From Rhizomicrobium sp. (GTDB taxonomy: Bacteria; Pseudomonadota; Alphaproteobacteria; Micropepsales; Micropepsaceae), in assembly GCA_035536115.1 (NCBI GenBank), contig DATLOU010000014.1, positions 2,937-66,936 on the forward strand: 64,000 bases of DNA, read 5' to 3'. The position numbers and the translations under genes were made by a program. Below, piece by piece: positions 11,380-64,000 of this stretch. The notes under the pieces were generated by a model, which saw nothing but the letters and a program-made list of their open reading frames with translations, was not told the DNA's origin and searched no databases. Numbering within the stretch: the first letter of the stretch is position 1; each line of letters begins with the position of its first letter.

Positions 11380-15089
<3,710 letters not shown>

Positions 15090-15093
<4 letters not shown>

Positions 15094-15974: not shown

Positions 15975-16939
15975 GCGGCCTCCGCCTGTGCTTTCGCCGC
16001 CGCTTCGGCCAGCCAGATTTTCACGGTGAGCTTATTCCTGCCCGCCGCGATTGCTTCGTTGGCGACAGGCTTGAGACCGGCAGCCTGGAACCAGCCCTGC
16101 ACTTCGCGATCGGCAAAGCCGAGCCGGCGATGGGCAAAGTCGCTGCGCAGGAATTCGAGATCGTGTGGTGCAAAGTCTGCGATCAAGAGGCGGCCGCCGG
16201 CGCGCATCACGCGCGCGGCTTCGGCAACCGCGGCCGCCGGATCGTCGAGATAGTGCAGCACCTGGTGGAACAAGACCGCATCGAAACCCGCAACTGCCGA
16301 ACCGTTGGCGAACGGCAGGCGATAGACGTCGCCCAGACGAACCTGAGCGTGCGTGATGTGCGCGCGTGCCAACCTGTCGCGTGCAATGGCGAGCATCTCG
16401 GCGCTGACATCGACGCCGATCGCGCGCTTCAGGTAGGGCGAAAGCAGTTCGAGCATCCGGCCGGTCCCGGTTCCGGCATCGAGCAGGAGGTTCATCGGCG
16501 TCGCTGCGATGTGACGCACGATCGCGGCTTCGACGTCTTTCTCCGGCGCATGCAGCGCACGGATGCGCTCCCATTGCGCCGCGTTGGCCTTGAAGTAGGC
16601 GGCAGCTTCCGCGGCGCGCGTTTCGCGCACGGTCGCGAGACGCTTGCGATCGGAGTCAAGGATTGCAGAATCGGGCGCGGCGATTTCGGCGATGGCGGCA
16701 GCAAAGTCGGCGCCCTTGCCCTGCTCGCTCGCGCGGTAGAAGACCCAGCTTCCTTCCTTGAAGCGCTCGAGCAATTCGGCTTCGCACAACAGTTTGAGAT
16801 GACGCGAGACGCGCGGCTGACTTTGGCCGACGATCTCGATCAGCTCGCTGACCGTGAGCTCGGCCTGGCGCAGAAGCAGCAACAGGCGCAGCCGGGTCGG
16901 ATCACCCGCGGCGCGCAGCATGGCAATCAGGGCGTCCAT
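15971..16939 (-). CDS. sahR: ArsR-family HTH regulator fused to a SAM-methyltransferase-like domain (SahR-type methionine-cycle regulator)
   Basis: The N-terminus is an ArsR/SmtB winged helix (AAGDPTRLRLLLLLRQAELTVSELIEIVGQSQPRVSRHLKLL). The C-terminus is a class I methyltransferase fold (LLDAGTGTGRML). The gene is first in an operon with metF and metH. ATG at 16939 with an AAGGAG SD; the ORF track gives 16969. Confidence 0.8.
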   Translation of the reverse strand: MDALIAMLRAAGDPTRLRLLLLLRQAELTVSELIEIVGQSQPRVSRHLKLLCEAELLERFKEGSWVFYRASEQGKGADFAAAIAEIAAPDSAILDSDRKRLATVRETRAAEAAAYFKANAAQWERIRALHAPEKDVEAAIVRHIAATPMNLLLDAGTGTGRMLELLSPYLKRAIGVDVSAEMLAIARDRLARAHITHAQVRLGDVYRLPFANGSAVAGFDAVLFHQVLHYLDDPAAAVAEAARVMRAGGRLLIADFAPHDLEFLRSDFAHRRLGFADREVQGWFQAAGLKPVANEAIAAGRNKLTVKIWLAEAAAKAQAEAA

Positions 16940-16966
16940 CGCAACCTTCTCCTTCAAACACATAAA

Positions 16967-16980
16967 CATATCTTTATATG
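16967..16980. promoter_or_regulatory. inverted repeat CATAT-cttt-ATATG upstream of the sahR-like gene (candidate operator)
   Basis: catatctttatatg lies 28 nt upstream of the 16939 start, in an AT-rich 100-nt divergent intergenic region shared with mlaA. Confidence 0.25.
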
Positions 16981-17045
16981 ATTATGCAATGGTTACGGCG
17001 AGCCGGCTCGGAGAATTCAAGGAATCGCTTATATAAAAGAGCGAT

Positions 17046-17792
17046 ATGGCGGGGATTGGCGGCAGAGACATCGGGATCTTGGCGGCAGCGGCGCTTTTGG
17101 CGTGCTGGCTGGGCGGTTGTGCGACGACGCCGACCCCCGAAATGCGGGCGGCGAATGACCCGTTCGAGCCCACCAACCGCGAGACGCTGAAACTGAACGG
17201 GAAAATCGACAAATACTTCGTAATTCCCACCGTCGGCGCCTATTTCTTCATCGTTCCGGACGGCGGCCGCCGCGCCATCCATAATTTTCTGCAGAACGTT
17301 TCGTTGCCAACGGTGTTTGTAAATGACGTGCTTCAGGGCGAGACCAAACGTGCTGGACAGACTTTCGCGCGCTTCACGATCAACACGACGCTGGGTTTGG
17401 GCGGATTTTTCGATCCGGCGACGAAGAAATTCCACGTTCCGGCCCATGGCGAGGATTTCGGTCAGACACTGGCGGTCTGGGGTGTCGGCGAAGGACCGTA
17501 TCTCATTCTGCCTGTCATCGGCCCGCAGCCGCCGAGGGATGCATTCGGACAGGTCGTCGACGTTTTTCTGGATCCGACCACCCATATCCACTTCAAGCAG
17601 CATCTGTGGTGGGATGTCGGGCGATACTATTTCACGCTTCTGGATTTGCGCGGGCAAACCTATTCGACCGTGCAAGGCATCCAGCGCAGTTCGGTGGACT
17701 ATTATGCCTCGCTGCGCAGCCTTTACCGCCAGATGCGCAACAATGAGATTAGCAACGGCAAGCCTGAGACGGAAAACCTACCGGAGTTCTGA
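17046..17792 (+). CDS. mlaA: MlaA/VacJ-family outer-membrane lipoprotein
   Basis: Lipobox LGGC after a hydrophobic signal peptide. Conserved motifs DPFEPTNRE, NDVLQG, RFTINTTLGLGGFFD, EDFGQTLAVWGV and GPYLILPVIGP. Confidence 0.85.
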   Translation: MAGIGGRDIGILAAAALLACWLGGCATTPTPEMRAANDPFEPTNRETLKLNGKIDKYFVIPTVGAYFFIVPDGGRRAIHNFLQNVSLPTVFVNDVLQGETKRAGQTFARFTINTTLGLGGFFDPATKKFHVPAHGEDFGQTLAVWGVGEGPYLILPVIGPQPPRDAFGQVVDVFLDPTTHIHFKQHLWWDVGRYYFTLLDLRGQTYSTVQGIQRSSVDYYASLRSLYRQMRNNEISNGKPETENLPEF

Positions 17793-17857
17793 CGCCGCCA
17801 CGAACTTGCCATATGGCGCCACGACCATCGGAACGCTCCATTGAGGAAAGACGAACC

Positions 17858-18520
17858 ATGTCTGCTACGGACCTGACCCCCGGCATACTGCCCCTCGCGC
17901 GCCGCGCGATCCTCGCATTTGCGTTTGCAACGGCTTCGCTCGCGGTTGCAACGACATCCGCGACGGCCAGCGCGCCCGCCGAGGCCTATGTGCAGAATAA
18001 CGTGCAGACCGGGCTCTCCATCCTGAACAACCGCTCGGCCTCGACCGACCAGAAGCGCGAGCAGTTCGAGCACTTCATTCTCGGGCTGACCGACATGAAG
18101 CGGATCGCGAACTTCACGCTCGGACAATACAAGCGCACCGCGTCACCTCAGGAACAGGAGGCCTTTGCGCAAGCCTTCCAGAGTTATGCCATCGCGGTTT
18201 ACCAATCCTATTTCTCGAAATATTCGGGCCAGACGCTGAAGGTCACAGGTTCGCAGCAGCGCGCGCCGGGCGACACCATCGTCCAGACCGTGATGATCGA
18301 TCCCAACGACAAAAGCGGACAGCCGCCGCTCGAAGTCGATTTCCGCGTGCTGGGCGAGGGCGGCAAGTTCGTCGTGATCGATTTCAGCGTCTCCGGAATC
18401 TGGCTGGCGCTGGAGGAACGCGATCAATTCAGCTCCTTCCTCGGCCAGAACAACGGCAGCATTGCGCTGTTGATCTCGCACCTGAAGGAATTGGCCCGGA
18501 ACTACAAGGCCGAGCACTGA
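17858..18520 (+). CDS. mlaC: MlaC/Ttg2D-family periplasmic lipid-binding protein
   Basis: Signal-like N-terminus from the ATG at 17858 (MSATDLTPGILPLARRAILAFAFATASLAVA). The MlaC-like body includes FTLGQYKRTASPQEQEAF and YQSYFSKYSGQTLKV. It lies directly downstream of mlaA. Confidence 0.75.
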   Translation: MSATDLTPGILPLARRAILAFAFATASLAVATTSATASAPAEAYVQNNVQTGLSILNNRSASTDQKREQFEHFILGLTDMKRIANFTLGQYKRTASPQEQEAFAQAFQSYAIAVYQSYFSKYSGQTLKVTGSQQRAPGDTIVQTVMIDPNDKSGQPPLEVDFRVLGEGGKFVVIDFSVSGIWLALEERDQFSSFLGQNNGSIALLISHLKELARNYKAEH

Positions 18521-50736: not shown

Positions 50737-51885
50737 GTGGGAATTCCGGTTCAACAGGCCGCGCGCATCGGCGCCTATGTGATGAAGCAGCACCTCACGG
50801 GTACGAAGCGTTATCCGCTCGTGCTCATGCTCGAGCCGCTCTTCCGCTGCAATCTCGCCTGCGCCGGGTGCGGCAAGATCGACTATCCCGACGATATTCT
50901 CAATCAGCGCCTGTCCTATCAGGATTGCATGGAGGCGATCGACGAATGCGGCGCGCCCGCGGTTTCAATCGCCGGCGGCGAGCCGCTTCTGCATCGCGAG
51001 ATGCCGCAGATCGTGCAAGGGTTCCTCGACCGCAACAAGTTCGTGATCCTGTGCACCAATGCGCTCCTGCTGACGAAGAAGATCGATCAGTACCAACCGC
51101 ACGCGAACTTCACCTGGTCGATCCATCTCGACGGCGACAAGGCGATGCACGATCACTCGGTGTGCCTGGAGGGCGTCTACGAAAAGGCGATCGAAGCTAT
51201 CAAGCTTGCCAAGTCCAAGGGCTTCCGCACCCAGATCAACTGCACGCTGTTCTCCAACGCCATTCCCGAACGCGTGGCCGCGTTTTTCGACACGATGATG
51301 GAGATGGGGCTCGACGGCATCACCATTTCGCCCGGCTATGCCTATGAACGCGCGCCGGACCAGGACAGCTTCCTCAACCGCGAACGCACCAAGAATCTCT
51401 TCCGCGACATTCTTTCGCGCGGCAATGGCGGCAAGAAATGGGAGTTCACCCAGTCGCCGCTCTTCCTCGACTTCCTGGCCGGCAACCAAACCTATGAATG
51501 CACGCCGTGGTCGATGCCGTTGCGCTGCGTCTTCGGCTGGCAGAAGCCCTGCTACTTGCTCGGCGAAGGCTATGTGAAGACGTTCAAGGAACTGATCGAG
51601 GACACAGACTGGGACAAGTACGGCGTCGGCAAGTACGAGAAGTGCCAGGACTGCATGGTCCACTGCGGCTTCGAGGGCACCGCCGTCATCGACTCGATCA
51701 AGCATCCCCACAAGCTGATCCCGCTCGCGGTGCGCGGGGTGAAGACGTCGGGACCGATGAAGCCGGATATCGACACCTCGCATCAGCGGCCGGCAGAATT
51801 CGTGTTCTCACGCCATGTCGAGCAGAAGCTAGCCGAGATACGGGCAACCAAGAAAAAGCCCGAGAGCGTCACGGCTGCGCGATAG
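50737..51885 (+). CDS. hpnH: radical SAM adenosylhopane synthase HpnH
   Basis: CNLACAGCG radical-SAM cluster motif, and an N-terminus IPVQQAARIGAYVMKQHL typical of HpnH. A GTG at 50737 with GGAG upstream is an alternative to the GTG at 50719, which overlaps the ispH stop. Confidence 0.9.
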   Translation: MGIPVQQAARIGAYVMKQHLTGTKRYPLVLMLEPLFRCNLACAGCGKIDYPDDILNQRLSYQDCMEAIDECGAPAVSIAGGEPLLHREMPQIVQGFLDRNKFVILCTNALLLTKKIDQYQPHANFTWSIHLDGDKAMHDHSVCLEGVYEKAIEAIKLAKSKGFRTQINCTLFSNAIPERVAAFFDTMMEMGLDGITISPGYAYERAPDQDSFLNRERTKNLFRDILSRGNGGKKWEFTQSPLFLDFLAGNQTYECTPWSMPLRCVFGWQKPCYLLGEGYVKTFKELIEDTDWDKYGVGKYEKCQDCMVHCGFEGTAVIDSIKHPHKLIPLAVRGVKTSGPMKPDIDTSHQRPAEFVFSRHVEQKLAEIRATKKKPESVTAAR

Positions 51886-52497
51886 GGCGGCGAACGCCTT
51901 GTTGGCTTCGCGACCGGTCGTCAGCAAATCCGCGATCTGAAAAGGCTCGCTCACCAGCGAGCGCAGAACGCCGCCGAGACGGATGCGCCCGTTGGCATTA
52001 AGGCGCACGAGCGCTGCCGGCGGCAATCCGCGCGTCGCGGCATCAGAAATCGCGCGGAGCGCCACGAACGGAATCTTGTGGCGGCGCGCGATGCGCGCGG
52101 CGATGTGAGATTCGTTATCGACCGCGTGTGCGCCGGAGATCGCGAACAGGCGGCGTTTACCGTCGACATGGCTCACGATCTCGCCATGGCCGACAATGAT
52201 CGCCGTCGTGGCACGCGGCAACTTTTGGCGCAGGACCGCATTCCACTTGACGTCGGTCGCATAACGTTCCTCGCCATGCACGACGTGGCTCGCGACCACA
52301 ACGTCGCCGGGACGAAGGAGCGGTGCGAGCGCGCCGGCGATTCCGAAACTGACGATGCCTTTGGCCCCGGCGGCGATGGCTTCTTCGAGGCGGCGCGCCA
52401 GAAGCGCTCCGTCGCCGGCCCCGACAACGGGCACCATGCGCGCGCGCCGTGCAATGCGGGCTTCACGCGCAAGACCGGTGACGGCAATGACGTTCAT
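51829..52497 (-). CDS. hpnG: hopanoid-associated nucleoside phosphorylase-family protein HpnG
   Basis: MNVIAVTGLAREARIA...GIVSFGIAGAL...HAVDNESH indicates a PNP/UDP fold. It is the last gene of the hpn operon, and its ATG overlaps the upstream stop (ATGA). Confidence 0.85.
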   Translation of the reverse strand: MNVIAVTGLAREARIARRARMVPVVGAGDGALLARRLEEAIAAGAKGIVSFGIAGALAPLLRPGDVVVASHVVHGEERYATDVKWNAVLRQKLPRATTAIIVGHGEIVSHVDGKRRLFAISGAHAVDNESHIAARIARRHKIPFVALRAISDAATRGLPPAALVRLNANGRIRLGGVLRSLVSEPFQIADLLTTGREANKAFAALSRSRDALGLFLGCPYLG

Positions 52498-53363
52498 GCG
52501 GCGGCGAGCTCCAGAACTCTGCGCTCGACGACGCCTTCGTCATCCTGATCGGCGAAGACGGCAACGCTGCGCGGCGGCGACATATCGGGAAGATGATAGA
52601 CCGCGCAAACGCTGCCGGGACCTGCGCCGCTATGGCCGTACCACATTCCGAATGGACCGTCGGGATCGATCATCAAACCGGTTCCTGGAGTCGGCGTGAC
52701 GAAGGGGCGACCAGTAAGAGCATCCAGCGGTGGCGAGGCCTGCAACATCGCAGCTCTTGATTGGACGGAAAGGAAATCGCTCGTGAAGACGCGATACAGG
52801 AGCCGCGCCGCATCCAAAGCGGTGCCGACGATAAGTCCGTGATAGACCCAGTTGGGGTCGTAGGCGCCGAGATCGGCAAAGGCCAGTCGCTGCATGTCGT
52901 CGCGCTCGCGGGTCAGGAAGGCATGGATGCCGAGCGGCGCGAAGACGGTGGCATGGAGTGCCGAACCAAGTGCGGAGTCGCTGGCGCGCTCGATCTCGCG
53001 GCGCACGAAGTAATACCCGATATTGCTGTATCTCCAGGCCTGCCCCGGTTCGGACAATAAGCGATTCGCGTTGGCCCGACGCAGGAGTTCGTCGACAGGC
53101 CAGGCAGGTTCGCCTCGCGCGACCGCGGCGTGATACTCGGAAAGGCGCCCATAGTCGGTCAGACCCGCGCGATGAGCGAGGAGCTGGCGCAGCGTGTAGG
53201 GTTTTGCCTCCAGCGGTTCGTCCAATGCGAGCTTGCCTTGCTCGACGAGCCGAAAAGCGGCGATAGCGAGCACCGTCTTGCCGAAGCTCCACCACGGTAC
53301 CAGCGCATGCGGCGCACCAAAGTCGGATTCGCTGCCGCCGACGATGCGGGCCGCGAGGATCAC
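52494..53363 (-). CDS. beta-lactamase-fold serine hydrolase (class C / esterase-like) embedded in the hpn operon
   Basis: It has an SxxK motif (SFGKTVLAIAAF) and a YSNIGY (YxN-like) motif. The GTG at 53363 overlaps the shc TGA (GTGA). The ORF-track start at 53510 would overlap shc by 150 nt. Confidence 0.7.
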   Translation of the reverse strand: MILAARIVGGSESDFGAPHALVPWWSFGKTVLAIAAFRLVEQGKLALDEPLEAKPYTLRQLLAHRAGLTDYGRLSEYHAAVARGEPAWPVDELLRRANANRLLSEPGQAWRYSNIGYYFVRREIERASDSALGSALHATVFAPLGIHAFLTRERDDMQRLAFADLGAYDPNWVYHGLIVGTALDAARLLYRVFTSDFLSVQSRAAMLQASPPLDALTGRPFVTPTPGTGLMIDPDGPFGMWYGHSGAGPGSVCAVYHLPDMSPPRSVAVFADQDDEGVVERRVLELAAA

Positions 53364-55312
53364 AGCCCGTACGCGACGTGATGCGAATTGCCTGCCTTGA
53401 GATTGCGGTAGCGCGCGACCGCCCAGAGCGGGAAGAACTTGGGATAGCCGTGATAACGCAGGTAGAACACGCGCGGGAAGCCGCCACCGGTATACTGGTC
53501 CTGCGACCACAATCCGTCGGGGCCTTGCGCGGCCCTGAGATAGCGGATGCCGCGCGCCACAGCGGATGAATCGACCTCACCGGCCGCCATGAGCGCAAGC
53601 AACGCCCAGGCGGTCTGCGACGCAGTCGAAGGCGCGTGATGATAGCCGCTGTAATCCAGCCGGTAGCTCGCACAATCCTCGCCCCAGCCGCCATCTTTGT
53701 TCTGGATTTCGACGAGCCAATGCACCGCGCGCCGGATCATGGGATGGTCGTGAGCGAGCCCCGCCGCGTTCAAACCGGCCAGAGCCGACCAGGTGCCGTA
53801 GATGTAGTTGACGCCCCAACGGCCGAACCAGCTGCCATCGGCCAGCTGCGAGCGCTTTAGAAACTCGATCCCCCTGTGCACCGCAGGATGGTCCTCGGTC
53901 TCGCCAAGTTGCGCCAGCATGCCGATGCAGCGTCCGCTGACATCGTCGGTCGGTGGATCGAGCAGCGCGCCGTGATCGGCAAAGGGAATGTTGTTCAGAT
54001 AGTAGTAAACGTTGTCGGCATCGAACGCACCCCATCCCCCATTCTCGCTCTGCAAGCCTTCAACCCACTCCCGGCCGCGCGCGATTGACTCGCGATAATC
54101 GGCAAAGGGCGCGACGCGTTCCTTGGCGCGGTCGAGCGCGATGACGACCACAGCCGTATCGTCGAGGTCGGGATAGTGGGCGTTGTTGTACTGAAAGGCC
54201 CAGCCGCCCGGGCGCACGTTCGGCCGCTCTTCCGCCCAATCGCCTTTCACGTCGAGAACCTGCCGCGTCTTCAGCCATTCGAGACTCTTTGCCACCGCGG
54301 CGTCAGCCGCGTCGTCTCTGAGTTCCATCAACGCCAGCGCCGCAAGCGCGGTGTCCCACACCGGAGACACGCAAGGCTGGCAGTAGGCCTCGTCATTCTT
54401 GATGACGAGGAGCCGCTCGACCGACTGGCGCGCAATCGCGCGATTGGGGTCGTTCGCTGAGACTCCCAACGCGTCGAACATCATCACGCTGTTTGCCATC
54501 GCTGGATAGATGGCGCCGAGTCCATCCTCGCCGTTGAGCCGTTCGATGGTCCATGCCTTGCACCTGTCGATGGCGCGTTGACGCAATCCCTTGGGCCAAT
54601 AAGGTTCGAAACGCTTGAGCAACCAGTCGAGCGCGGCGAAGAAGGCGGACCAGCCCACGCTTTGATGCGGTGCGCGCGGGCCGATCACGGGCACGCCGGC
54701 AACGAAGAGTTCCGGGACATGCACATTGCGCGGATTTCTCGCGACCGGCTTCAAGGCCGCCAGCACCAGCAGCGGCACGATCACGGTGCGCGCCCAATAA
54801 CTCATCTTGGAGAGATGAATGGGAAACCAGCGCGGCAAGAGAATGAGTTCGACCGGCACCGTCGGGACGTTCTTCCATTCCGTTTCGCCATAAAGCGCGA
54901 GCAGAATGCGCGTGAAGACGTTCGTCTTGATCGCGCCGCCCCGCTCGCGGATGGCGTCGCGGGCTCGCGTCATGTGCGCAGCGTCACTGTCGTCGCCGAT
55001 CATCTTGAGGGCGAAATAGGCCTTGACGGTCGCCGAGATGTCGAACGGGCCGCCATGATAGAGCGGCCAACCGCCATGGCTGCCCTGAATGCGGCGGAGA
55101 TAGTTGCCGATCTTCGTTTCGAGCTCCAGGTTCGGCGTCTCTGCCAGATAGTGAACCAGGAGGACATATTCGGACGGAATGGTCGCGTCGGCTTCGAGCT
55201 CGAACACCCAATGACCGTCCTCGCGCTGCAGCTTCAAGAGCGCGGCGGTGGCCTCGCCGAGCACTTTGTCGACAAAGACGGTGCTTTCATGTTCGCTGGC
55301 CAGCTGGTTCAT
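53360..55312 (-). CDS. shc: squalene-hopene cyclase
   Basis: 650 aa with the catalytic DxDDTA motif (PDLDDTAVVVIAL) and multiple QW repeats (e.g. LQSENGGWG, IQNKDGGWGE, QLADGSWFGRWG). Confidence 0.95.
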   Translation of the reverse strand: MNQLASEHESTVFVDKVLGEATAALLKLQREDGHWVFELEADATIPSEYVLLVHYLAETPNLELETKIGNYLRRIQGSHGGWPLYHGGPFDISATVKAYFALKMIGDDSDAAHMTRARDAIRERGGAIKTNVFTRILLALYGETEWKNVPTVPVELILLPRWFPIHLSKMSYWARTVIVPLLVLAALKPVARNPRNVHVPELFVAGVPVIGPRAPHQSVGWSAFFAALDWLLKRFEPYWPKGLRQRAIDRCKAWTIERLNGEDGLGAIYPAMANSVMMFDALGVSANDPNRAIARQSVERLLVIKNDEAYCQPCVSPVWDTALAALALMELRDDAADAAVAKSLEWLKTRQVLDVKGDWAEERPNVRPGGWAFQYNNAHYPDLDDTAVVVIALDRAKERVAPFADYRESIARGREWVEGLQSENGGWGAFDADNVYYYLNNIPFADHGALLDPPTDDVSGRCIGMLAQLGETEDHPAVHRGIEFLKRSQLADGSWFGRWGVNYIYGTWSALAGLNAAGLAHDHPMIRRAVHWLVEIQNKDGGWGEDCASYRLDYSGYHHAPSTASQTAWALLALMAAGEVDSSAVARGIRYLRAAQGPDGLWSQDQYTGGGFPRVFYLRYHGYPKFFPLWAVARYRNLKAGNSHHVAYGL

Positions 55313-55321
55313 GCGATGGGG

Positions 55322-56572
55322 TTATCCGCTTGTCCGAGAAAGTGCCAGTCGCGCCGCCTTTTGCCCCGAACGGACGGCGCCTTCAAGCGTCGCGGGCAAG
55401 CCCGTATCCGTCCAATCGCCGGCGAGCAGCAAATTGGACCATCTCGTGATGGCCCCGGGCCTCAGCGCCGCTTGCTCAGGGGTCGCGGCAAAGGTGGCGC
55501 GGCGTTCCTTGACGATCTGCCAGGGCGGAAGCTCAGCCGGCAGATTCAGCACCGCGGCGACATCAGACCAGAACAGCGCTGCCAATTCCTCGCGGTCCTT
55601 CTCGACGATGGCGTCGGCGCCGCTGACTGTGATCGAGATGCGATCGGGGAAGGCGAAGACCCACTCAGCCGATCCGCCGATCACGCCCGTCATCAACGGC
55701 GTTCCGGCGGGAGGCGCAATGCGAAAATGCGCGTTGACGATGGCTGAGTGCTCAGCGGGCGCGACAAGGCCGGGCACCAGCTCCATCGCGACCCAAGGCG
55801 GGACGGCGAGAATGACGGCGTCGCGCTCGCCGAGTTCGACGACCGAATCCGGCAATTGCAGACCTGTCACCTCGGACTGGGCGAAGACGAGCGCGCGCAC
55901 ACGCTGACCCAGACGAAGGTTGGCCGCCTTGCGTTTCAGCGTGGCGAGCGCCGGATCGACGAAGGCCGCCGCCAATGTGGGATGGGCGATGCGTGGACGA
56001 TATGCGTGTCCGCCTCGCGCCAGAGACTCGCGAATGACCGCGCCTGCCAATCTTGCGGACGCGCCTTTCGGTTGGGTGTTGAGAACCGCCAGGAGAAACG
56101 GTTCCAGCAAGCGCTCCCACAAGGCGCCCTCGCAGGCGATGACGTCGCCGATGCGCTGGTTTGGCGCGGCAAGCATCAGACGCACCAACGCGAGATAGTC
56201 ATGAGGTTTGGTCCTGGGGACGCGGCGTCTCGCGCTGAACAGCCACCAAGCGATGGCGCTTTCATTGGGGCGGATTGTCCAGCGCTCGCCAGTCCGCACG
56301 TCGGCAAAATCGAACTCGGCACGGTTTGGCCCGGCAAGCGCATTCTCCGCGCCGATGGCGCGAAGGTAGCTCTGTACGCAATGATTGCCCGACAGCACGA
56401 GATGATTGCCGTTGTCGATCACCTGTTCGAGCACCGGATCGAAATAGGAACGGCAGCGGCCGCCTGCCTGCGGCGCGCCCTCGATCAGTTCGACGCTGGC
56501 GCCGTTCTCGGCGAGTGCCACGGCAGCCGAAAGGCCGGCTAGGCCCGCGCCGACGACATAGACTGTGCTCAT
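55322..56572 (-). CDS. hpnE: FAD-dependent hydroxysqualene dehydroxylase HpnE
   Basis: MSTVYVVGAGLAGLSAAVAL is a GxGxxG FAD fold and the protein is amine-oxidase-like. The ATG overlaps the hpnD stop (ATGA at 56569-56572). Confidence 0.9.
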   Translation of the reverse strand: MSTVYVVGAGLAGLSAAVALAENGASVELIEGAPQAGGRCRSYFDPVLEQVIDNGNHLVLSGNHCVQSYLRAIGAENALAGPNRAEFDFADVRTGERWTIRPNESAIAWWLFSARRRVPRTKPHDYLALVRLMLAAPNQRIGDVIACEGALWERLLEPFLLAVLNTQPKGASARLAGAVIRESLARGGHAYRPRIAHPTLAAAFVDPALATLKRKAANLRLGQRVRALVFAQSEVTGLQLPDSVVELGERDAVILAVPPWVAMELVPGLVAPAEHSAIVNAHFRIAPPAGTPLMTGVIGGSAEWVFAFPDRISITVSGADAIVEKDREELAALFWSDVAAVLNLPAELPPWQIVKERRATFAATPEQAALRPGAITRWSNLLLAGDWTDTGLPATLEGAVRSGQKAARLALSRTSG

Positions 56573-57423
56573 CCGAAAAGGCCATTGCGCAAAACGATGC
56601 CGAGCAGCTTCGCCTTGCCGAGGCTGACGCGGCTGCGCGGGGGCTTCCAACCGACGGCCTCTGTCTGGCGCAGGATCTCGCCATACACAGCACCCATAAG
56701 ACGCGGCGTCGCGATGCGGCCCTTCGGTTTCTTCGCGAGAACAGAAGCCGCCTTGGCGTAGCGTCCATGCGCATCGCGCGCCAGTAAGCGGCAGACGGAG
56801 TCGATCCTCGGATCGGCGATCGCGGCTTTCGGATCTCTCGTTGCGATCCCTGCGGCCTCAATATACTCGCGCGGCAGATAAAGCCGGCCGATCGCGGCAT
56901 CTTCGTCGATATCGCGCAGGATATTGGTGAGTTGCAATGCACGGCCGAGCTCATGCGCAAGTTCGAAGCCGGCGTCCTCCTTCATGCCGAACACCTTGAT
57001 CGACAGCCGTCCCACCGCGCTCGCCACCCGCTCGCAATAGAGATCGAGCGTCTGCAGGTCCGGCGCCACGATGTCCCTTTCGACATCCATGTCCATGCCG
57101 TCGATCACCGTGAGGAAATCGACCCTGCGCAGGCCATAGTGCTTGACGGGCTCGGCTAGAAAACGGGCGCGCTCCGGCGGATGGCCGGCATAAAGATCGT
57201 CTAGATCGACGCGCCATTTGAGCAGCTCGGCTTTGCGTTCCTCTCGCGTGCCGACACCGTCGTCGGCGATATCATCGACCAGGCGGCAGAAGCCGTAGAT
57301 GGCGAACATTGCCTCGCGCTCTGCTTTCGGCATCAGGCGCATTGCCGAGTAGAACGAGCTTGAGGACGCCTTTTCCTGAGCCGCCTGAACGACAGGAATG
57401 GATTGTGATGGTGCGAGTGTCAT
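56569..57423 (-). CDS. hpnD: presqualene diphosphate synthase HpnD
   Basis: Squalene/phytoene synthase fold, with FYSAMRLMP, Asp-rich LVDDIAD and a second motif ILRDIDED. Confidence 0.9.
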   Translation of the reverse strand: MTLAPSQSIPVVQAAQEKASSSSFYSAMRLMPKAEREAMFAIYGFCRLVDDIADDGVGTREERKAELLKWRVDLDDLYAGHPPERARFLAEPVKHYGLRRVDFLTVIDGMDMDVERDIVAPDLQTLDLYCERVASAVGRLSIKVFGMKEDAGFELAHELGRALQLTNILRDIDEDAAIGRLYLPREYIEAAGIATRDPKAAIADPRIDSVCRLLARDAHGRYAKAASVLAKKPKGRIATPRLMGAVYGEILRQTEAVGWKPPRSRVSLGKAKLLGIVLRNGLFG

Positions 57424-58295
57424 GGACCAGTTGCCGAGTCGGAGGAGGTCTTTTTAGGCCGAAGCCGGGCCGAGGCAAACTCGCGCAGGCTGCGGAACAA
57501 AAGAGCAGGCATTTCGCCGCGCGTGTGATGCACGCGCTCAGAGAGGGGATCATGGTTCAGAAGGCGTTTCGCCAGGTCCTCGGCCAGGGTCTGAATGACG
57601 TTGACTTCCAATGCGAGGCGGCGGTCGCGGATCTGACGGGCGAAGGGGCGCGCGATCTGCAGAAGCTCCTGCGTGCGACGGGTGAGATCCACGATCACGC
57701 TGCGCAGCGCGAGCGAACTCTTGTCCTTGGCCAGTGCGAGCGTCGACACGCCGGCGCGATCGAGCAAGTCCATTGGAAGGTAGACTCGATCGAGCTGGCG
57801 GTAATCCTTGGCGCAATCCTGCAGGTGGTTGATGATCTGCAGAGCCGTGCAGAGCGCGTCGTTCGCCGGCCAAAGGCTGCGGTCTTCGCCATGGACATCG
57901 AGCACGAAGCGTCCGACCGGCATGGCGGAATAGCGACAATAATCGAGGAGCTCGTTCCAGTTCGCATAGCGTAGCTTGGTGACGTCCTGGCGAAAGGCCC
58001 TCAGGAGATCGAGCGCGTGCTCGTTCGAAAGCGCTCGCGCCGCGAGCACTTTGCGAAGTTCGACGGCTTCTTTGGCATCATCCGCCTCGCCTATCAGGTT
58101 GAGGCGCATATCATCGAGCAAGGCAAGCTTCGCGGTCGGCGTCGCCGCCGCATTGTCGGCGATGTCGTCACTCGCGCGTGCGAAGCGATAGAACGCCATG
58201 ATCGCGGGACGATGCCTGCGCGCAATCAGGATCGAGGCGACGGGAAAATTCTCGTCCTTATGTCCCTTGCCGGATGCGAGCTGCGCCGCCGTCAT
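57420..58295 (-). CDS. hpnC: hydroxysqualene synthase HpnC
   Basis: Squalene synthase-like, with ENFPVAS, FARASDDIAD and LQDCAKD. The ATG at 58295 overlaps the hpnB stop (ATGA). Confidence 0.9.
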   Translation of the reverse strand: MTAAQLASGKGHKDENFPVASILIARRHRPAIMAFYRFARASDDIADNAAATPTAKLALLDDMRLNLIGEADDAKEAVELRKVLAARALSNEHALDLLRAFRQDVTKLRYANWNELLDYCRYSAMPVGRFVLDVHGEDRSLWPANDALCTALQIINHLQDCAKDYRQLDRVYLPMDLLDRAGVSTLALAKDKSSLALRSVIVDLTRRTQELLQIARPFARQIRDRRLALEVNVIQTLAEDLAKRLLNHDPLSERVHHTRGEMPALLFRSLREFASARLRPKKTSSDSATGP

Positions 58296-59422
58296 GTTCG
58301 GCCCATCGCCTGGGCGCGGCCTTTCCACATACCGCCGCGCCCCAGCCAATGCTGCAGCGCCGAGTCGAGCGTGAACAGCGCATAGACCGCGCCGATCAAT
58401 GGCAGAACCAGACCCCAGAGCGGCGACAGGCGGTAGAAACTGAGCGTCGGCTGGAAAGCCAGCGCCATCGCCGCCCAGGCGAGAATGCCCGACGCCTGGG
58501 CGGAGTCGCGCGCCAGGAGCGCGAAAAGCGGCGGTGCCGCATAGACGACGATCATGCCGACCAAGGTGCCGGCAAGCGCAAGCGAGGAGTAGCCAAGCTG
58601 CGCAAAGGCGGAGCGTGCGACCATTGCGCGGATATCTGGCAGGCCACGATAAGGTCTGATGCTCACGGCCCGTTCGCTAAGGCCCAGCCAAATCGGACCT
58701 TCCCGCTTGAGCAGGCGGGCGAGCGCGCAGTCGTCGATGATGTCCGAACGGATGGCATCGATGTTGCCGGCGCGTTCAAGCGCCTCGCGGCGGACGAGCA
58801 TGCAGCCTCCTGCGGCGGCGGCGGTCTTCGTGCGAGGATCATTGACCCAACGAAACGGATAGAGCATTGCGAAGAAGAACACGAAGGCCGGAATGAGATA
58901 GCGCTCGCTCCAGCTCCGGCAATGAAGTTTCGCCATCAAAGATGTGAGCACAAGCCGGTTCGCCTCCGCCCGCGCCACGAGGCGACGGAGATTGTCGGGC
59001 GCATGCGCGATGTCCGCATCGGTCAGCCAAAGATAGTCGGGCGCTCCCGCAGCAGTGACGCCTTGCCTGACGGCCCAAAGTTTTCCCGTCCAGCCGGAGG
59101 GCCGCGGCGCGCCGCTCACCACCGTCATGCAGACGGCGCCGGAAGCGTCGCGCGCGGCCTCGGCCGTTCCGTCATCGCTCTGATCGTCCACGAGTACAAC
59201 GCGGAATGTGCCTGGATAATCCTGCGCCAGAAGGCTCGCCAAGGTCTCGCCGATCACGTCGGCTTCGTTGCGTGCCGGAACGATCGCGACCACCGATGGC
59301 CACGACGTCGGTGACGGTGCTGCGTCGCGGTCGTCGCGTTCCTGCATCACCCAGAACATGCCGCGCGCGGCCAACAGGTAGAGCCAGACGGCGACGGGAA
59401 GGAGTGCAACAAGCGCGATCAT
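58292..59422 (-). CDS. hpnB: hopene-associated family-2 glycosyltransferase HpnB
   Basis: N-terminal TM helix, a GT2 core (VVAIVPARNEADVI, VVLVDDQSDDGT, LWLTDADI) and C-terminal TM helices. It occupies the position between hpnA and hpnC. Confidence 0.85.
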   Translation of the reverse strand: MIALVALLPVAVWLYLLAARGMFWVMQERDDRDAAPSPTSWPSVVAIVPARNEADVIGETLASLLAQDYPGTFRVVLVDDQSDDGTAEAARDASGAVCMTVVSGAPRPSGWTGKLWAVRQGVTAAGAPDYLWLTDADIAHAPDNLRRLVARAEANRLVLTSLMAKLHCRSWSERYLIPAFVFFFAMLYPFRWVNDPRTKTAAAAGGCMLVRREALERAGNIDAIRSDIIDDCALARLLKREGPIWLGLSERAVSIRPYRGLPDIRAMVARSAFAQLGYSSLALAGTLVGMIVVYAAPPLFALLARDSAQASGILAWAAMALAFQPTLSFYRLSPLWGLVLPLIGAVYALFTLDSALQHWLGRGGMWKGRAQAMGRT

Positions 59423-60408
59423 CGAATGTAGCCCGCCTGGCGGAACCAAGAAATCGCGTCCTCGATGCCGCGCGCAAAAGGCCGTGCCTGAAAGCCCAGT
59501 TCGGCTTTCGCCTTCTCCGACGAAAAGTACATAAGATATTTCGACATCTTGAGCGCATCGACGGTAAGGAACGGCTCCTTGCCCCTCATGCGCGCAAACG
59601 CTTCCGCGCCAAACGCGAGCGGATAGAGCGGTGCTCGCGGCAGCCGCACACGCGGCGGCTTTCGTCCCACCAGCGGCGCGATGAGAGCGAGCATGTCTCG
59701 CAGTCGGACGTCTTCGCCGCCCAGGATGTAGTTCTCGCCGATCCGTCCCTTGTCCAGTGCCAGCAGATGGCCTTGAGCGACATCGTCGACATGCACCAGA
59801 TTGAGTCCGGTATCGACGAAGGCGGGCATGCGCCCGTTCGCTGCCTCGACGATGATCCGACCTGTCGGCGTCGGTTTGATGTCTCGAGGTCCGATCGGCG
59901 TCGAAGGACTGACGATCACCACCGGCAACCCCTCGCCGGCCAGACGCTCAACCAATCGTTCGGCAACGAGCTTGCTCTTTTTGTAGACGCCGATGACTGT
60001 CACTTCGTCGTGCCGCGAGGTTTCGTCGACCGCTCTGCCGGCGACCGGTTTCAGTGCGGCGACACTGGACGTGTAGACGATGCGCTCGACGCCCGTGGTG
60101 CGGGCCGCTTCCATCACGGCGCGGGCACCGTCCAGATTGTTGCGCACGATCTCGGATGGATCTCTGGCCCAAAGCCGGTAATCCGCCGCAACATGGAAGA
60201 CATGGCGCACGCCCTCCATCGCCTTTGTCATCGCCTTCACGTCGCGCATGTCGCCGATCATGACGCGGCAATCGAGCCCATCAATGTTCTTTCGCGAACT
60301 CCCTTCGCGCAGCAGCACGCGGACGTCGTCGCCGCGCGCAACAAGCGCACGTGCCACCGCCGAGCCGACAAAGCCCGATGCTCCGGTAACGAGGACAGGA
60401 TCGCCCAT
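59419..60408 (-). CDS. hpnA: hopanoid-associated NAD-dependent sugar epimerase/dehydratase HpnA
   Basis: VLVTGASGFVGSAV Rossmann motif and YKKSK (YxxxK). It lies in the canonical hpnA-B-C order. Confidence 0.85.
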   Translation of the reverse strand: MGDPVLVTGASGFVGSAVARALVARGDDVRVLLREGSSRKNIDGLDCRVMIGDMRDVKAMTKAMEGVRHVFHVAADYRLWARDPSEIVRNNLDGARAVMEAARTTGVERIVYTSSVAALKPVAGRAVDETSRHDEVTVIGVYKKSKLVAERLVERLAGEGLPVVIVSPSTPIGPRDIKPTPTGRIIVEAANGRMPAFVDTGLNLVHVDDVAQGHLLALDKGRIGENYILGGEDVRLRDMLALIAPLVGRKPPRVRLPRAPLYPLAFGAEAFARMRGKEPFLTVDALKMSKYLMYFSSEKAKAELGFQARPFARGIEDAISWFRQAGYIR

Positions 60409-61385
60409 CAGCTTTCGGCCGGCCTTGCGAGCGCGCGGCGTCCTTCCATGGCCTGCCAGGCGAGAAGCACCGGTACGCCGATGACGATGTCGCGCGCCCG
60501 GCGCAGCAGCGACACGGCGAGACCGATCTCAGGCCCCAGTCCGAACAACGGCATGAGCGCGGCGTAGCCGGCTTCCTGGACGCCGATAGCCGAAGGGATG
60601 AAGACAGTCGCGCTGCGCAACCCGGCGAGCAAGGCCTCGATCGCGATCGCCGATGGAAAACTGAGATGGCCGCCGATCAGCCGGACCGAGAGCCATACAA
60701 TGAGTGCGCTCGCGGTCCAGGAGAGAAGGTGGATGGTGGCCGAGGCGGCGAGCCGTGCCGGGGACGCATAGATCACCTTCAGAGCCAGAGCGAATGCCGC
60801 GGTGTGCTTGACGGCGGCGGGAAGAAGCCGGTTCGCCAACCGTTCGGCAAGTGCGCTGCCGCGCTTCTGCAGAACGACGAGGGCGGCAATTCCGGGAACG
60901 AGCAGAAACGTGCCTAGGACCAAGCCGTCGACATACGGCGCCAGGGTCGCGGACGCGCGGAGCTCCGTCAGGCACAGCGCGATGCCGATGGCGATGAAGG
61001 CGATCTGCGCCATCAGCTCCGTCGTCACGTCGGCCGCCATCGAGGCGAAAGCCATCGGTGCAGGCACACCACGCAAGGTCAGCGCCCGCGCGCCGATCAC
61101 CATCCCGCCGAACTGCGAGAAGGGAAGAATGTCGCCCGCGCTGTCGCGGGTCTGTCGACCGATGATGCAGCTCACCAGATTGCGCAGACGATGATCGGGC
61201 AGCAGGGCGAACCAGCCGCTGCCCATCAGCGCGACGATGCCAAGTCCGGTCAAACAGATCAGCGCAAAACCGCCGAGACCGACCGAAGCAATCGCCGCGA
61301 AGACCGAAGCTGCACCGACATGGAAAAGAAGCCAGACCGCGATTGCGAGCCCGAATATGGCGGCAGCGACGACTCCGGCTTTCAT
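60408..61385 (-). CDS. hpnL: HpnL-like integral membrane protein (lysyl-PG synthase TM-region / UPF0104 family)
   Basis: 325 aa with about 8 TM helices and the glycine- and arginine-spaced pattern of UPF0104. Its stop shares 1 nt with the hpnA start. Confidence 0.7.
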   Translation of the reverse strand: MKAGVVAAAIFGLAIAVWLLFHVGAASVFAAIASVGLGGFALICLTGLGIVALMGSGWFALLPDHRLRNLVSCIIGRQTRDSAGDILPFSQFGGMVIGARALTLRGVPAPMAFASMAADVTTELMAQIAFIAIGIALCLTELRASATLAPYVDGLVLGTFLLVPGIAALVVLQKRGSALAERLANRLLPAAVKHTAAFALALKVIYASPARLAASATIHLLSWTASALIVWLSVRLIGGHLSFPSAIAIEALLAGLRSATVFIPSAIGVQEAGYAALMPLFGLGPEIGLAVSLLRRARDIVIGVPVLLAWQAMEGRRALARPAES

Positions 61386-61392
61386 CGCCCGC

Positions 61393-62289
61393 TCAAGCGG
61401 TCACAACTGGTTTCGGCCCGAAGAGCCGCCGGAAGGTGCGCACCATGAACGGCACAAAGCGCGGGCGCTTGAGGCGCCCGTCGTAAACGCCGAGACGGCG
61501 CGCGTTCTCGCTGAGGCAGATATCCATCAACTTGAAGGCGTCGATGTCGTCGGCGAGCTGGCTTGCTCCCGTCATGGTGAAATTGTTGTCCTGCACGCCG
61601 TTCGAGACGTCGGATGCGATGCCGATACGCTCCCAGATCAGGAATGCCCACACCGCGAGCACTTTCAACTCGAACCAGGGCCGCCGCCAGAGCGGCATGT
61701 TGCGCCGATGCCAGGAAACCCAGTTCACGAAGAAGAGGATATGGCGACCCTCTTCGTGGATGACGGGCTCGAAGGTTTCGACGAGCGCGGCCGGAAAATA
61801 ACCCGACGCGCGCGCGGTCTCGAACAGTCCGAAGGCGAAGAAGCTGTCGATGCATTCGCTGTAGCCGGTGACCAGAAACGCCCATTCGGGATCTTTGGGG
61901 CGCGGATACTGCGGCTCCGGCGCAAGCTTGATGCCATAGGCTTCCACCAGATTGGAAAGGACGAAGCGATGGCGGCGCTCCTCGAAGCCGCTGAGTTCGA
62001 CGGCCTTGCGCAGCAACGGATCGCGCACGCCTTCGGCATAGGTGCAGACATTGAGGCTGGCGCGGTTTTCGGTCTGCACCGCGATATCCCAGATCGGCAA
62101 CGACGTGATGCGCGCGGTAGCGTCGGCATCCAGCTTGGGCCAATCGATGACCGCCGGGCGGTAGGGATTGAACGTGTCGAGAAGCGTCTTGCAGAAGAGG
62201 CGCTTGTGGTCGTCGCTCCCCATGCGGATCGGGCCATCGCCGACCCCTGGGCCAGTGCCGCTGATTTCGGGAAAAGTCAATACTGACAT
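61393..62289 (-). CDS. ferritin-like diiron-carboxylate protein of unknown function, inside the hpn operon
   Basis: Two E...ExxH pairs are present. They are E(NRASL...)-x-FEERRH and E(CIDSFF...)-x-HEEGRH. An amphipathic/hydrophobic C-terminal segment follows (WFELKVLAVWAFLIWERIGIA). The stop lies 7 nt before the hpnL start. Confidence 0.7.
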   Translation of the reverse strand: MSVLTFPEISGTGPGVGDGPIRMGSDDHKRLFCKTLLDTFNPYRPAVIDWPKLDADATARITSLPIWDIAVQTENRASLNVCTYAEGVRDPLLRKAVELSGFEERRHRFVLSNLVEAYGIKLAPEPQYPRPKDPEWAFLVTGYSECIDSFFAFGLFETARASGYFPAALVETFEPVIHEEGRHILFFVNWVSWHRRNMPLWRRPWFELKVLAVWAFLIWERIGIASDVSNGVQDNNFTMTGASQLADDIDAFKLMDICLSENARRLGVYDGRLKRPRFVPFMVRTFRRLFGPKPVVTA

Positions 62290-62347
62290 GGTCTTATCCT
62301 ACGGAACTCCTCATAGGGGCTGTCGCTCACCCGGCCATAGCAGAGGA

Positions 62348-63181
62348 TCAGAAGTCTGCAAAGCCGCCGCGGGTCACGCCGGAATTGCGCGAGGCCTCGA
62401 CGATGCGCGGCGCCAACAGCGCCTGGAGTTCCTCTGCATAGCGATAGCCAGACGCCGAGCCCCGATAGGGTCCCGTCGCCGGATGCAGATAGATCTCCGT
62501 CAGGCCCGGCGGCAAATTCTCGAGCAATCCCAGAACGCGCCCTGGCGTCATCGCGCCGGACCAGGCGAGACCAAAAACCTGATCGGGTACGCACATCTTG
62601 GCGGCACGAAAGCGGCGTCGCGACAGAAGCAGCCACGGCGTCAACAGCCAATCGCGTGACGCGCTCAGAGTGGGCTCTACACGACGAAGGAGCCAGCGCG
62701 GCTCCAGCGGCACGCGCACCGCGCGCAGACCGTAGCGCCTGCCAACGCGCAGAATCGTCGATGCGATTGTCGGGTGCAGATGAAAGTGCTTGTGGGTGTT
62801 GACGTGATCGAGGGCCAATCCGGTCGCACGGAAGGCGTCAAACTGCGCTTCGACCTCGGCCTCGAGCTGGCGGCGCACGCGCGGCAGGCAAAATATCCTG
62901 AATGCGGCGGCGGTCATGTCGTTGCGAAACATGCCCGCCGCATCGACGAGATCGGGCACGGCGGATGCGGGCAGTGTTGGCCTGCCATCGACCAAAACGA
63001 TATGCAGCCCGACGCGCAGGCGCGGCAAGGCCTTCGCGCGCGCGATGGCGCTTGCTGCGGCTTGGCCGGAAACCATCAGGCTTGCCGCGGTGAGGATGCC
63101 GTCGCGATGGCCTTGCTCGACCGAGTCGTTCACTTCCTCCGCGGCGCCGAAATCGTCCGCCGTGACGATCAGGCCTTTCAC
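62348..63181 (-). CDS. hpnK: YdjC-family deacetylase HpnK
   Basis: MKGLIVTADDFGAAEEVN...GILTAASLMV...VGLHIVL...HVNTHKHFHLHP is a YdjC-like fold. It lies next to hpnJ. Confidence 0.85.
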   Translation of the reverse strand: MKGLIVTADDFGAAEEVNDSVEQGHRDGILTAASLMVSGQAAASAIARAKALPRLRVGLHIVLVDGRPTLPASAVPDLVDAAGMFRNDMTAAAFRIFCLPRVRRQLEAEVEAQFDAFRATGLALDHVNTHKHFHLHPTIASTILRVGRRYGLRAVRVPLEPRWLLRRVEPTLSASRDWLLTPWLLLSRRRFRAAKMCVPDQVFGLAWSGAMTPGRVLGLLENLPPGLTEIYLHPATGPYRGSASGYRYAEELQALLAPRIVEASRNSGVTRGGFADF

Positions 63182-63185
63182 GCGG

Positions 63186-64000
63186 CTACGAGACGATGGC
63201 GTCTTCGCGCGTGCGCAGGAACTGGAAGAACTCCACGCCCTCGCGCAGGCGGCGGCGCATCATTTCCGGCGAGGTGAGCATCTCGCCGACGATGGCAGCA
63301 ATCTTCGAGGGACGGAAATAGAACCGCTTGTAGAAGCTCTCGACCGACTCGAAGATTTCGGTGTGCCCGAGGTGCGGATAGTTGAGCGGCGCGATCTGCG
63401 TACCGTCTTCCGTCAGAAGGTCGGTGTCTTCGGCGAACCAGCCGTTTTCCTTGGCCTGCTTGTAGAGGAAGGTGCCTGGATAAGGCGCAGCGAGCGAGAC
63501 CTGGATCGTGTGCGGATTCACTTCCTTGGCGAAGGCGAGCGTTTCCTCGATCGTTTCGCGCGTTTCGCCAGGAAGGCCCAAAATAAAGGTGCCGTGCACG
63601 ACGATCCCAAGCTCGTGGCAATCCTTCGAGAAGCGCCGCGCGACGTCGACAAGAAGACCCTTTTTGATGTTGTGCAAAATCTTCTGGTTGCCCGATTCAT
63701 ACCCGACCAAGAGCAACCTGAGCCCGTTGGCCTTCAGGATCTCAAGCGTCTTGCGCGGAACATTGGCCTTGGCATTGCAGGACCATACGACACCGAGCTT
63801 GCCGAGTTCCCGTGCCAGCGCTTCGACGCGCGCGTGATCGTCCGTCAATGTGTCGTCGTCGAAGAAGATTTCCTTCACCTGCGGAAATTCCTTCTGCAGG
63901 TACTTCACTTCCTCAATCACCTTGGGGATCGAGCGATAGCGGTATTTATGTCCGCCGATCGTCTGGGGCCAGAGACAGAAGGTGCAACGCGACTTGCAGC
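63186..64000 (-). CDS. hpnJ: B12-binding-domain radical SAM protein HpnJ (3' part; 5' end beyond the window)
   Basis: The reading frame stays open to the window edge. The last visible codons (63961-64000) encode CKSRCTFCLWPQ, the CxxxCxxC cluster motif. The downstream part is GYESGNQKIL...GTFILGLPGET.... Confidence 0.8.
   Translation of the reverse strand, partial: CKSRCTFCLWPQTIGGHKYRYRSIPKVIEEVKYLQKEFPQVKEIFFDDDTLTDDHARVEALARELGKLGVVWSCNAKANVPRKTLEILKANGLRLLLVGYESGNQKILHNIKKGLLVDVARRFSKDCHELGIVVHGTFILGLPGETRETIEETLAFAKEVNPHTIQVSLAAPYPGTFLYKQAKENGWFAEDTDLLTEDGTQIAPLNYPHLGHTEIFESVESFYKRFYFRPSKIAAIVGEMLTSPEMMRRRLREGVEFFQFLRTREDAIVS

Follow-up and report, generated by a model that had tools for sequence, protein, structure and literature searches.

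A family of predicted ferritin-like dimetal-carboxylate proteins embedded in bacterial hopanoid gene clusters, with a candidate role in oxidative hopanoid tailoring

RESULTS

An unnamed gene between hpnK and hpnL

We analyzed a 64,000-nucleotide stretch of a Rhizomicrobium sp. genome (Alphaproteobacteria; Micropepsaceae; GenBank assembly GCA_035536115.1, contig DATLOU010000014.1, positions 2,937 to 66,936), hereafter called the window, and focused on an unnamed open reading frame (ORF), ORF X, that lies among hopanoid biosynthesis (hpn) genes between hpnK and hpnL (Table 1). The initial annotation of the window had described a 298-amino-acid ORF with two E...ExxH pairs, on the same strand as its neighbors, 58 nucleotides after hpnK and 7 nucleotides before hpnL. 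The ORF, the strand, and both distances (to the hpnK stop codon at 62348 and to the hpnL start codon at 61385) were as described, and all four motifs quoted there were found in the translation: ENRASL at residues 74 to 79, FEERRH at 102 to 107, ECIDSFF at 145 to 151, and HEEGRH at 178 to 183. The resulting ligand layout is E74...E104xxH107 plus E145...E180xxH183. We scanned the hpnK-X and X-hpnL gaps and found no promoter-like or terminator-like site in either. With gaps this short and free of terminators, X, hpnK, and hpnL most likely share a transcript.

Table 1. Features of ORF X, its hopanoid gene neighbors in the window, and loci of the paralogue X2 in the survey
Feature	Coordinates	Strand	Remarks
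ORF X	61393..62289	-	ATG start, 298 amino acids; predicted ferritin-like (R2-type) dimetal-carboxylate protein of an unnamed family
AGGA Shine-Dalgarno-like motif	62297..62300	-	7 nucleotides 5' of the ORF X ATG; read from sequence
First ligand pair, E74 (helix 67-87) and E104-x-x-H107 (helix 91-117, FEERRH)	61969..62070	-	From ORF translation, alignment, and AlphaFold2 helices
Second ligand pair, E145 (ECIDSF, helix 134-162) and E180-x-x-H183 (HEEGRH, helix 167-196)	61741..61857	-	
Hydrophobic Trp/Arg-flanked helix, residues 206-228, FELKVLAVWAFLIWERIGIASDV	61606..61674	-	Long helix in model; putative in-plane membrane anchor
Basic amphipathic C-terminal helix, residues 276-293, PRFVPFMVRTFRRLFGPK	61411..61464	-	Helix 278-290 in model
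hpnK, bacteriohopanetetrol-N-acetylglucosamine deacetylase	62348..63181	-	Upstream of X; TIGR03473, 363.8 bits (cutoff, 232.6)
hpnJ, B12/radical S-adenosylmethionine cyclitol-ether enzyme, 3' part	63186..64000	-	Runs off the window; TIGR03471, E = 3e-134 on the fragment
hpnL, flippase-like LPG_synthase_TM membrane protein	60408..61385	-	Downstream of X; TIGR03476, 255.9 bits (cutoff, 195.65)
hpnA, hpnB, hpnC, hpnD, hpnE, shc, beta-lactamase-family ORF, hpnG	51829..60408	-	Remaining same-strand run
X2 or X-X2 fusion loci	L012 10879-11727; L062 9938-11671; L071 6590-8344; L072 9827-11689; L080 9941-11686		

Members of the X family occur in hopanoid clusters of several lineages

ORF X has more than 7,600 homologues in a 5.8-billion-protein database. 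At 50% identity the family falls into 897 clusters, of which 187 have an E value of 1e-30 or lower, and it splits into two deep clades: A, with the window X, and B, with a paralogue that we call X2 (about 33% identical to X). X is thus a real, strongly conserved gene and not a chance ORF.

For clade A, we surveyed 80 genome loci (64 to 84% identity) from Micropepsales/“Rhizomicrobium,” Steroidobacteraceae, Stellaceae, and Rhodospirillales, of which 54 had at least 5 kb of flank on both sides. Fifty of these 54 well-flanked loci had an hpn gene within 5 kb. The most constant partner was hpnL, found directly downstream of X in 46/54; directly upstream stood hpnK (35/54) or hpnJ (8/54). The order hpnI-J-K-X-L was seen in Micropepsales and Steroidobacteraceae, and locus L001 reads hpnI-hpnJ-hpnK-X-hpnL-hpnA-hpnB. 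X2 lay between X and hpnL in 24/54 loci, while the window has X only. In four loci the two form a single fused ORF of about 580 amino acids, and in one of these (L062) the fusion and hpnL stand alone, distant from other hpn genes. X2 keeps all metal ligands. The tandem and fused arrangements suggest a heterodimer, and the paralogues may serve two sites of modification.

When metagenomes were surveyed with clade B as the seed, 14 of 18 well-flanked loci were in hpn context. The Eremiobacterota, a group that includes the cultured Vulcanimicrobium alpinum, have the order hpnH-hpnA-SQS, X2, shc-hpnB-hpnG-hpnI-hpnK. Other clade-B orders were hpnJ-X2; hpnI-X2-hpnJ-hpnK; and hpnN, X2, hpnH. The Eremiobacterota cluster L098 (also L093, L105, and L108) contains hpnI, hpnK, and the ferritin-like gene, with no hpnJ within 10 kb. 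In L098, Pfam scans of the ORF calls, most of whose hits fell on wrong-frame ORFs, put the end of the cluster after hpnK, where a gene resembling phosphomannose isomerase and one for an amino-acid permease lie.

Further arrangements were found in Beta- and Gammaproteobacteria. Cupriavidus metallidurans CH34 and C. campinensis carry X with hpnB, hpnA, hpnH, and hpnN (X-hpnB / hpnA / hpnH / hpnN), and hpnI, hpnJ, and hpnK were not found within 9 to 15 kb. A Nevskia-like gammaproteobacterial metagenome-assembled genome has the order hpnI-J-K-L-X. At that locus (L177), a single 1,060-amino-acid product (14868-18050) joins a squalene/phytoene-synthase domain to a squalene-hopene cyclase, and a DUF2147 (“hpnT”) gene and mevalonate-pathway genes are also present. 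On plasmid p3 of Caballeronia zhejiangensis (L178, 9580-10830), the order is hpnI-hpnL-X-hpnJ, with X lying between an hpnL-like gene and hpnJ. This X is a pseudogene: its reading frame carries a shift and an early stop codon, one ligand is gone (QEKCRH), and the gene table of the record omits it.

The initial annotation had proposed a neighborhood survey and had stated that orthologues sitting mostly outside hopanoid loci would speak against its reading. Orthologues proved to lie mostly inside such loci, in several phyla and gene orders. The X family is embedded in hopanoid clusters of Alpha-, Beta-, and Gammaproteobacteria and Eremiobacterota.

The ligand residues are conserved

The same annotation had named a lack of conservation of the ExxH motifs as another result that would refute its reading. 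We aligned 117 relatives (81 clade-A orthologues and 36 clade-B paralogues), and E74, E104, H107, E145, E180, and H183 were invariant in all of them. The flanking E103 and E179, together with D148, R106, and R182, were likewise invariant or nearly so. Among 33 diverse representatives (26 to 66% identity to the window protein), 25 retained the full motif residue pattern and 6 had lost ligand residues. Diverged members without two to four of the six ligands are P0212, P0215, P0221, P0245, P0263, and P0269. The pattern of loss suggests that such proteins are degenerate paralogues, and they may act as non-catalytic partner subunits.

In source databases, X homologues are annotated as “hypothetical,” as “ferritin-like domain-containing,” or, wrongly, as “aminomethyltransferase.” The last label is frequent among orthologues from Burkholderia, Pandoraea, and their relatives (e.g., L170, 8932-9834), and one orthologue is named “p-aminobenzoate N-oxygenase.” Both of these labels look like propagated misannotation and were unsupported by any profile search here.

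X is predicted to adopt a large R2-type fold

AlphaFold2, run on X with a 34-sequence alignment, gave an all-helical model (mean predicted local distance difference test score, 91.3; predicted template modeling score, 0.89). In this model the ligands sit on four consecutive long helices (residues 67 to 87, 91 to 117, 134 to 162, and 167 to 196). A Foldseek search of the PDB returned only R2-like ligand-binding oxidase (R2lox) and ribonucleotide reductase R2 proteins among its top 50 matches, with a probability of 1.00 and template modeling (TM) scores of 0.43 to 0.55. R2lox ranked first (E = 1.6e-3; TM, 0.50 to 0.55), followed by class I R2/NrdF.

R2lox (PDB 4hr0 and 5dcs) is the best structural match to X, with about 290 aligned columns and a similar size, and the two have in common an R2-type helical bundle and a carboxylate/His dimetal site. 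R2lox, another protein with no assigned physiological reaction, holds a long-chain lipid in a hydrophobic channel. The relationship is seen by structural alignment only, at 16 to 19% identity, and R2lox was not retrieved by phmmer or hmmsearch of the PDB. X differs further in its extra hydrophobic and amphipathic C-terminal helices and in its hopanoid gene context. The ribonucleotide reductase R2/NrdF proteins (TM, 0.43 to 0.54) share the twofold E...ExxH ligand layout; however, X matches no R2 sequence model, no nrdA or nrdE lies nearby, and the neighbors are all hpn genes. X also reads H107-R-F-V-L111, with Leu where the radical tyrosine of class Ia/Ib R2 would be expected, if the offset of four residues after the first His, which we take from E. 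coli R2 numbering, applies here. In the terms of the model, X would be a cytoplasmic protein with a large R2-type ferritin fold and a complete, conserved dimetal-carboxylate site.

The initial annotation had also noted a hydrophobic/amphipathic C-terminal segment that it took as a sign of membrane association. The segment is present without being a transmembrane helix: in a 19-residue Kyte-Doolittle scan of X, the highest mean was 1.44 (residues 210 to 228), under the transmembrane threshold. Residues 276 to 293 have a hydrophobic moment of 0.57, the highest in the protein. We infer from these sequence features that X docks on the membrane through the helix at residues 206 to 228 and the amphipathic C terminus. 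Alternative oxidase, PTOX, Coq7, and AcsF are interfacial, non-transmembrane diiron enzymes that oxidize lipophilic substrates at the membrane surface. X is proposed to work in a similar way, at the interface and on a lipophilic substrate, although its family gave only subthreshold COQ7 matches (2/34 members; best E = 0.0065) and no sign of descent shared with these enzymes beyond the superfamily.

X belongs to no named family at the sequence level

The window X had no match in Pfam-A or NCBIfam at an E value of 1 or lower. It also had no match among PDB sequences, with no R2 at an E value of 10 or lower. When X, X2, and a Burkholderia orthologue were compared with the NCBIfam HpnA to HpnN models, none matched, unlike the hpn neighbors. 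An X family profile retrieved from the PDB only MiaE-like hydroxylases (E = 0.15 to 0.7), with the ligand motifs in register. Individual members gave subthreshold Pfam matches to the ferritin clan only, namely, to Rubrerythrin, AurF, Ferritin_2, COQ7, DUF455, and MiaE. The weak profile matches to AurF/CmlI, MiaE, and rubrerythrin align the ligand motifs of the X family, but every score was under the gathering threshold. For AurF/CmlI (PF11583), the best score was about 14 bits, from paralogues, against a threshold of 29.6, and the window X gave none. Long representatives were considered as a source of functional clues from domain fusions. These were chimeric or fragmentary ORFs (MFS, POT, AIRS_C, and a YdjC tail), and only the X-X2 fusion was consistent.

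Rubrerythrin was the commonest weak Pfam match (13/34 members; best E = 0.0012), and one family fragment scored 21.4 bits against PF02915, for which the gathering cutoff is 22.8. These matches, and the nearness of the X gene to radical S-adenosylmethionine (SAM) genes, would fit a rubrerythrin- or ferritin-like protein that protects oxygen-sensitive Fe-S and radical-SAM enzymes (HpnH, HpnJ, and IspH) in aerobes or supplies them with iron. However, the window X itself did not match Rubrerythrin, no Cys4/rubredoxin domain was found, and none of these Pfam matches reached a gathering score. The R2-type fold of about 290 amino acids is also not the compact rubrerythrin/ferritin bundle. The conserved hydrophobic and amphipathic helices, and the constancy with which X pairs with the membrane protein HpnL, point instead to a lipid substrate, and we regard a protective or iron-supplying role as improbable.

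Taken together, X is not a member of the R2, R2lox, AurF, rubrerythrin, MiaE/COQ7, or any named Hpn family at the sequence level. Its predicted ligand sets on a four-helix bundle and its structural similarity place it in the ferritin-like diiron-carboxylate superfamily (R2 type). The ferritin-like diiron fold of the initial annotation is supported by ligand conservation, the weak but consistent ferritin-clan matches, the AlphaFold2 model, and Foldseek. We found no paper that mentions the X family, and it is absent too from the supplement of a 2025-26 synteny study. Because its members have no domain annotation, the family is invisible to domain-based synteny screens, including this recent one. 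X represents an unnamed family in a superfamily that is itself known, and the family's tie to hopanoid biosynthesis is new.

The hopanoid island around ORF X

The Hpn names that the initial annotation had given to the neighbors were borne out by the NCBIfam Hpn models. Curated cutoffs were exceeded by HpnK, HpnL, HpnA, HpnB, HpnC, HpnD, HpnE, Shc, HpnG, HpnH, and HpnN of the window. HpnJ was identified as the best-matching family: its 270-amino-acid fragment scored 448.5 bits, compared with a full-length cutoff of 577.6, and HpnJ was the top match across the whole fragment. The hpnJ frame contains a CxxxCxxC motif and is open up to the end of the window. Farther along the same island are genes for HpnH, IspH, farnesyl diphosphate synthase, Dxs, and HpnN.

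The run had been called otherwise contiguous. The Hpn identities hold, and the contiguity needs one small qualification: a beta-lactamase-family (serine hydrolase) gene stands between shc and hpnG (52494-53510, minus strand). It is the sole non-Hpn gene of the run. The longest call for this ORF extends into the 3' end of shc, no NCBIfam model matched it, and homologues occupy the equivalent place in loci L004 and L005.

Hopanoid profiles and the steps that lack a gene

The genes for the C-31 and C-30 hydroxyls of pentols and hexols and for delta-6/delta-11 unsaturation were stated to be unknown, with no candidate near hpn clusters (PMC12583986). The roles of HpnL, HpnA, and HpnB were likewise unassigned in recent surveys (PMC12583986; bioRxiv 2025.07.29.667474). 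Published lipid profiles allow a comparison between two lineages. The Methylobacterium strains analyzed made bacteriohopanetetrol (BHT) cyclitol ether and essentially no unsaturated or pentol forms (PMC12583986), whereas Burkholderia cenocepacia, which carries X, made unsaturated and pentol cyclitol ethers (PMC8560942). In the hpn locus of Methylobacterium bullatum (hpnL, an MlaC-like gene, hpnI, hpnJ, an ORF, hpnK, and hpnN), we did not find X. This contrast comprises two data points and fits X-linked tailoring circumstantially; it does not separate hydroxylation from desaturation. Since Methylobacterium makes BHT cyclitol ether although its hpn locus lacks X, X is accessory to the HpnI/HpnK/HpnJ route and not an enzyme of the core pathway.

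We noted two genes of the M. bullatum locus (L179) as observations in their own right. A putative MlaC/HpnM-like gene (13143-13766) lies between hpnL and hpnI, and an ORF of 263 amino acids (16916-17707), SPFH/band-7-like by eye only, lies between hpnJ and hpnK.

The position of X beside the cyclitol-ether genes raises the alternative that it helps to make the head group. X would then be an O2-dependent counterpart to HpnJ or would partner it as a radical initiator. Models for both exist: the diiron AcsF replaces the radical-SAM BchE in aerobic chlorophyll synthesis, and R2 serves R1 in ribonucleotide reductase. X or X2 adjoins hpnJ in several gene orders, BchE was among the strongest matches of HpnJ outside its own family, and the Eremiobacterota clusters combine hpnI, hpnK, and a ferritin-like gene with no hpnJ within 10 kb. 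Many alphaproteobacteria with hpnI, hpnJ, and hpnK also accumulate BHT-glucosamine and not cyclitol ether, which hints at an extra factor (PMC12583986). However, the cyclitol ether is an isomer of BHT-glucosamine (bioRxiv 443473), and isomerization is a redox-neutral step and therefore a poor fit for an oxygenase. B. cenocepacia, despite its X, makes no cyclitol ether once hpnJ alone is deleted (PMC13459092), Methylobacterium makes the ether with no X in its hpn locus, and the Cupriavidus hpn locus has X with no hpnI, hpnJ, or hpnK within 9 to 15 kb. The isomerization step, the deletion phenotype, and Methylobacterium led us to largely reject X as a stand-alone aerobic substitute for HpnJ, and we give a head-group role of either kind little credence.

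Several Sphingomonadales and Acetobacteraceae have BHT-glucosamine and bacteriohopanepentol (BHpentol) cyclitol ether and no BHT cyclitol ether (PMC12583986, Table S6). On one reading, ring contraction or hydroxylation is selective in these bacteria, or the two are coupled, which the three-gene pathway does not explain. We also considered BHpentol cyclitol ether as the product of an oxidative ring contraction, with the extra hydroxyl on the cyclitol. Data from the Rohmer method ruled this out. In Table 3 of PMC12583986, the pentol plus hexol percentages obtained by the Rohmer method approximate those of BHpentol cyclitol ether by liquid chromatography-mass spectrometry, and the pentols are ascribed to homohopan-31-ol; the extra hydroxyl is therefore on the side chain.

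DISCUSSION

Proposed function of X

We lean, by a small measure, toward X being a dimetal oxidase, peripheral to the membrane, that activates O2 and tailors extended hopanoids, either hydroxylating or desaturating them. X would bind Fe/Fe or Mn/Fe and attach to the cytoplasmic membrane from the inside, by way of its hydrophobic helix and its basic amphipathic C terminus. There it would activate O2 to oxidize a hopanoid of the extended (C35) type, the likely one in this organism being a product of the HpnI/HpnK/HpnJ branch, i.e., BHT-glucosamine or BHT cyclitol ether. The oxidation would precede flipping or export of the lipid by HpnL and HpnN. One candidate reaction is hydroxylation of a side-chain C-H bond, which would yield pentol-type cyclitol ethers; a second is ring desaturation at delta-6 or delta-11. 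X would probably act as a dimer, as a homodimer here and as an X-X2 heterodimer where the tandem or fused paralogue occurs.

A bolder version assigns one position to each paralogue. X and X2 would then be O2-dependent C-31/C-30 hydroxylases that give pentol and hexol cyclitol ethers, or delta-6/delta-11 desaturases, and would work as a heterodimer with HpnL at the membrane. We consider this version unlikely.

Several observations weigh against an oxidative tailoring role in hopanoid biosynthesis. No reductase or ferredoxin partner gene is encoded near X. In Rhizomicrobium palustre A48, the nearest cultured relative for which lipid data exist, plain BHT cyclitol ether made up 99%, pentol 1%, and unsaturated forms 0% (PMC12583986), which would count against such a role if the strain carries X. 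By RefSeq numbering alone (Table S5), three slots lie between HpnI (WP_167082936) and HpnA (WP_167082940) of that strain. Other authors favor membrane enzymes of the “sterol desaturase” type for hopanoid unsaturation (hpnX, fatty-acid hydroxylase superfamily; PMC6460317 and PMC12583986). These enzymes, too, are candidates; they have an integral-membrane His-box fold unrelated to X and usually lie outside hpn clusters.

The last points concern X genes away from hopanoid clusters. In Burkholderia, Paraburkholderia, Caballeronia, and Pandoraea, X occurs as a well-conserved orphan gene outside hpn loci. Distant members of the family (37 to 44% identity) occur in non-hopanoid contexts, one beside genes for a cyclopropane-fatty-acid synthase and an MprF-like protein and another beside GNAT and arginase genes. 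Such copies would fit an enzyme that oxidizes some other lipid or small molecule (a product of HpnA, HpnB, or HpnL; a phospholipid; or, in an AurF-like reaction, the glucosamine nitrogen), with the cluster position of X reflecting shared regulation or membrane physiology. The weak AurF matches, the “p-aminobenzoate N-oxygenase” label, and the X-X2-hpnL module found apart from other hpn genes point the same way. However, the association with hopanoid genes was seen independently in at least six gene orders and in four phylum- or class-level lineages, and all named carriers seen belong to lineages that bear hopanoid clusters. The AurF score also falls far short of its threshold. A substrate other than an extended hopanoid is, in our view, unlikely.

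Overall, the diiron fold and the hopanoid link put forward in the initial annotation are supported, and ring unsaturation and side-chain hydroxylation, two of the reactions that it named, stay candidates. That annotation had also raised oxidative shortening to the C34 carboxy-hopanoid of hopanoid-lipid A conjugates, and nothing in this analysis pointed to a hopanoid-lipid A role.

Significance

Hopanoids are major bacterial membrane lipids and are among the most abundant molecular fossils, and several of their tailoring steps are without a gene. Few genes found here were linked to the clusters as consistently as X, which is a good candidate for an unassigned oxidative step of hopanoid biosynthesis. 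Since orthologues are present in the genetically tractable Burkholderia and Cupriavidus, the hypothesis is directly testable there. If X is O2 dependent, particular hopanoid structures would be tied to oxygen availability, which would aid in reading the biomarker record. Should X and X2 prove to be hydroxylases or desaturases, sedimentary composite hopanoids that are penta- and hexafunctionalized or unsaturated would serve as markers of biosynthesis under oxic conditions, with the gene behind them known.

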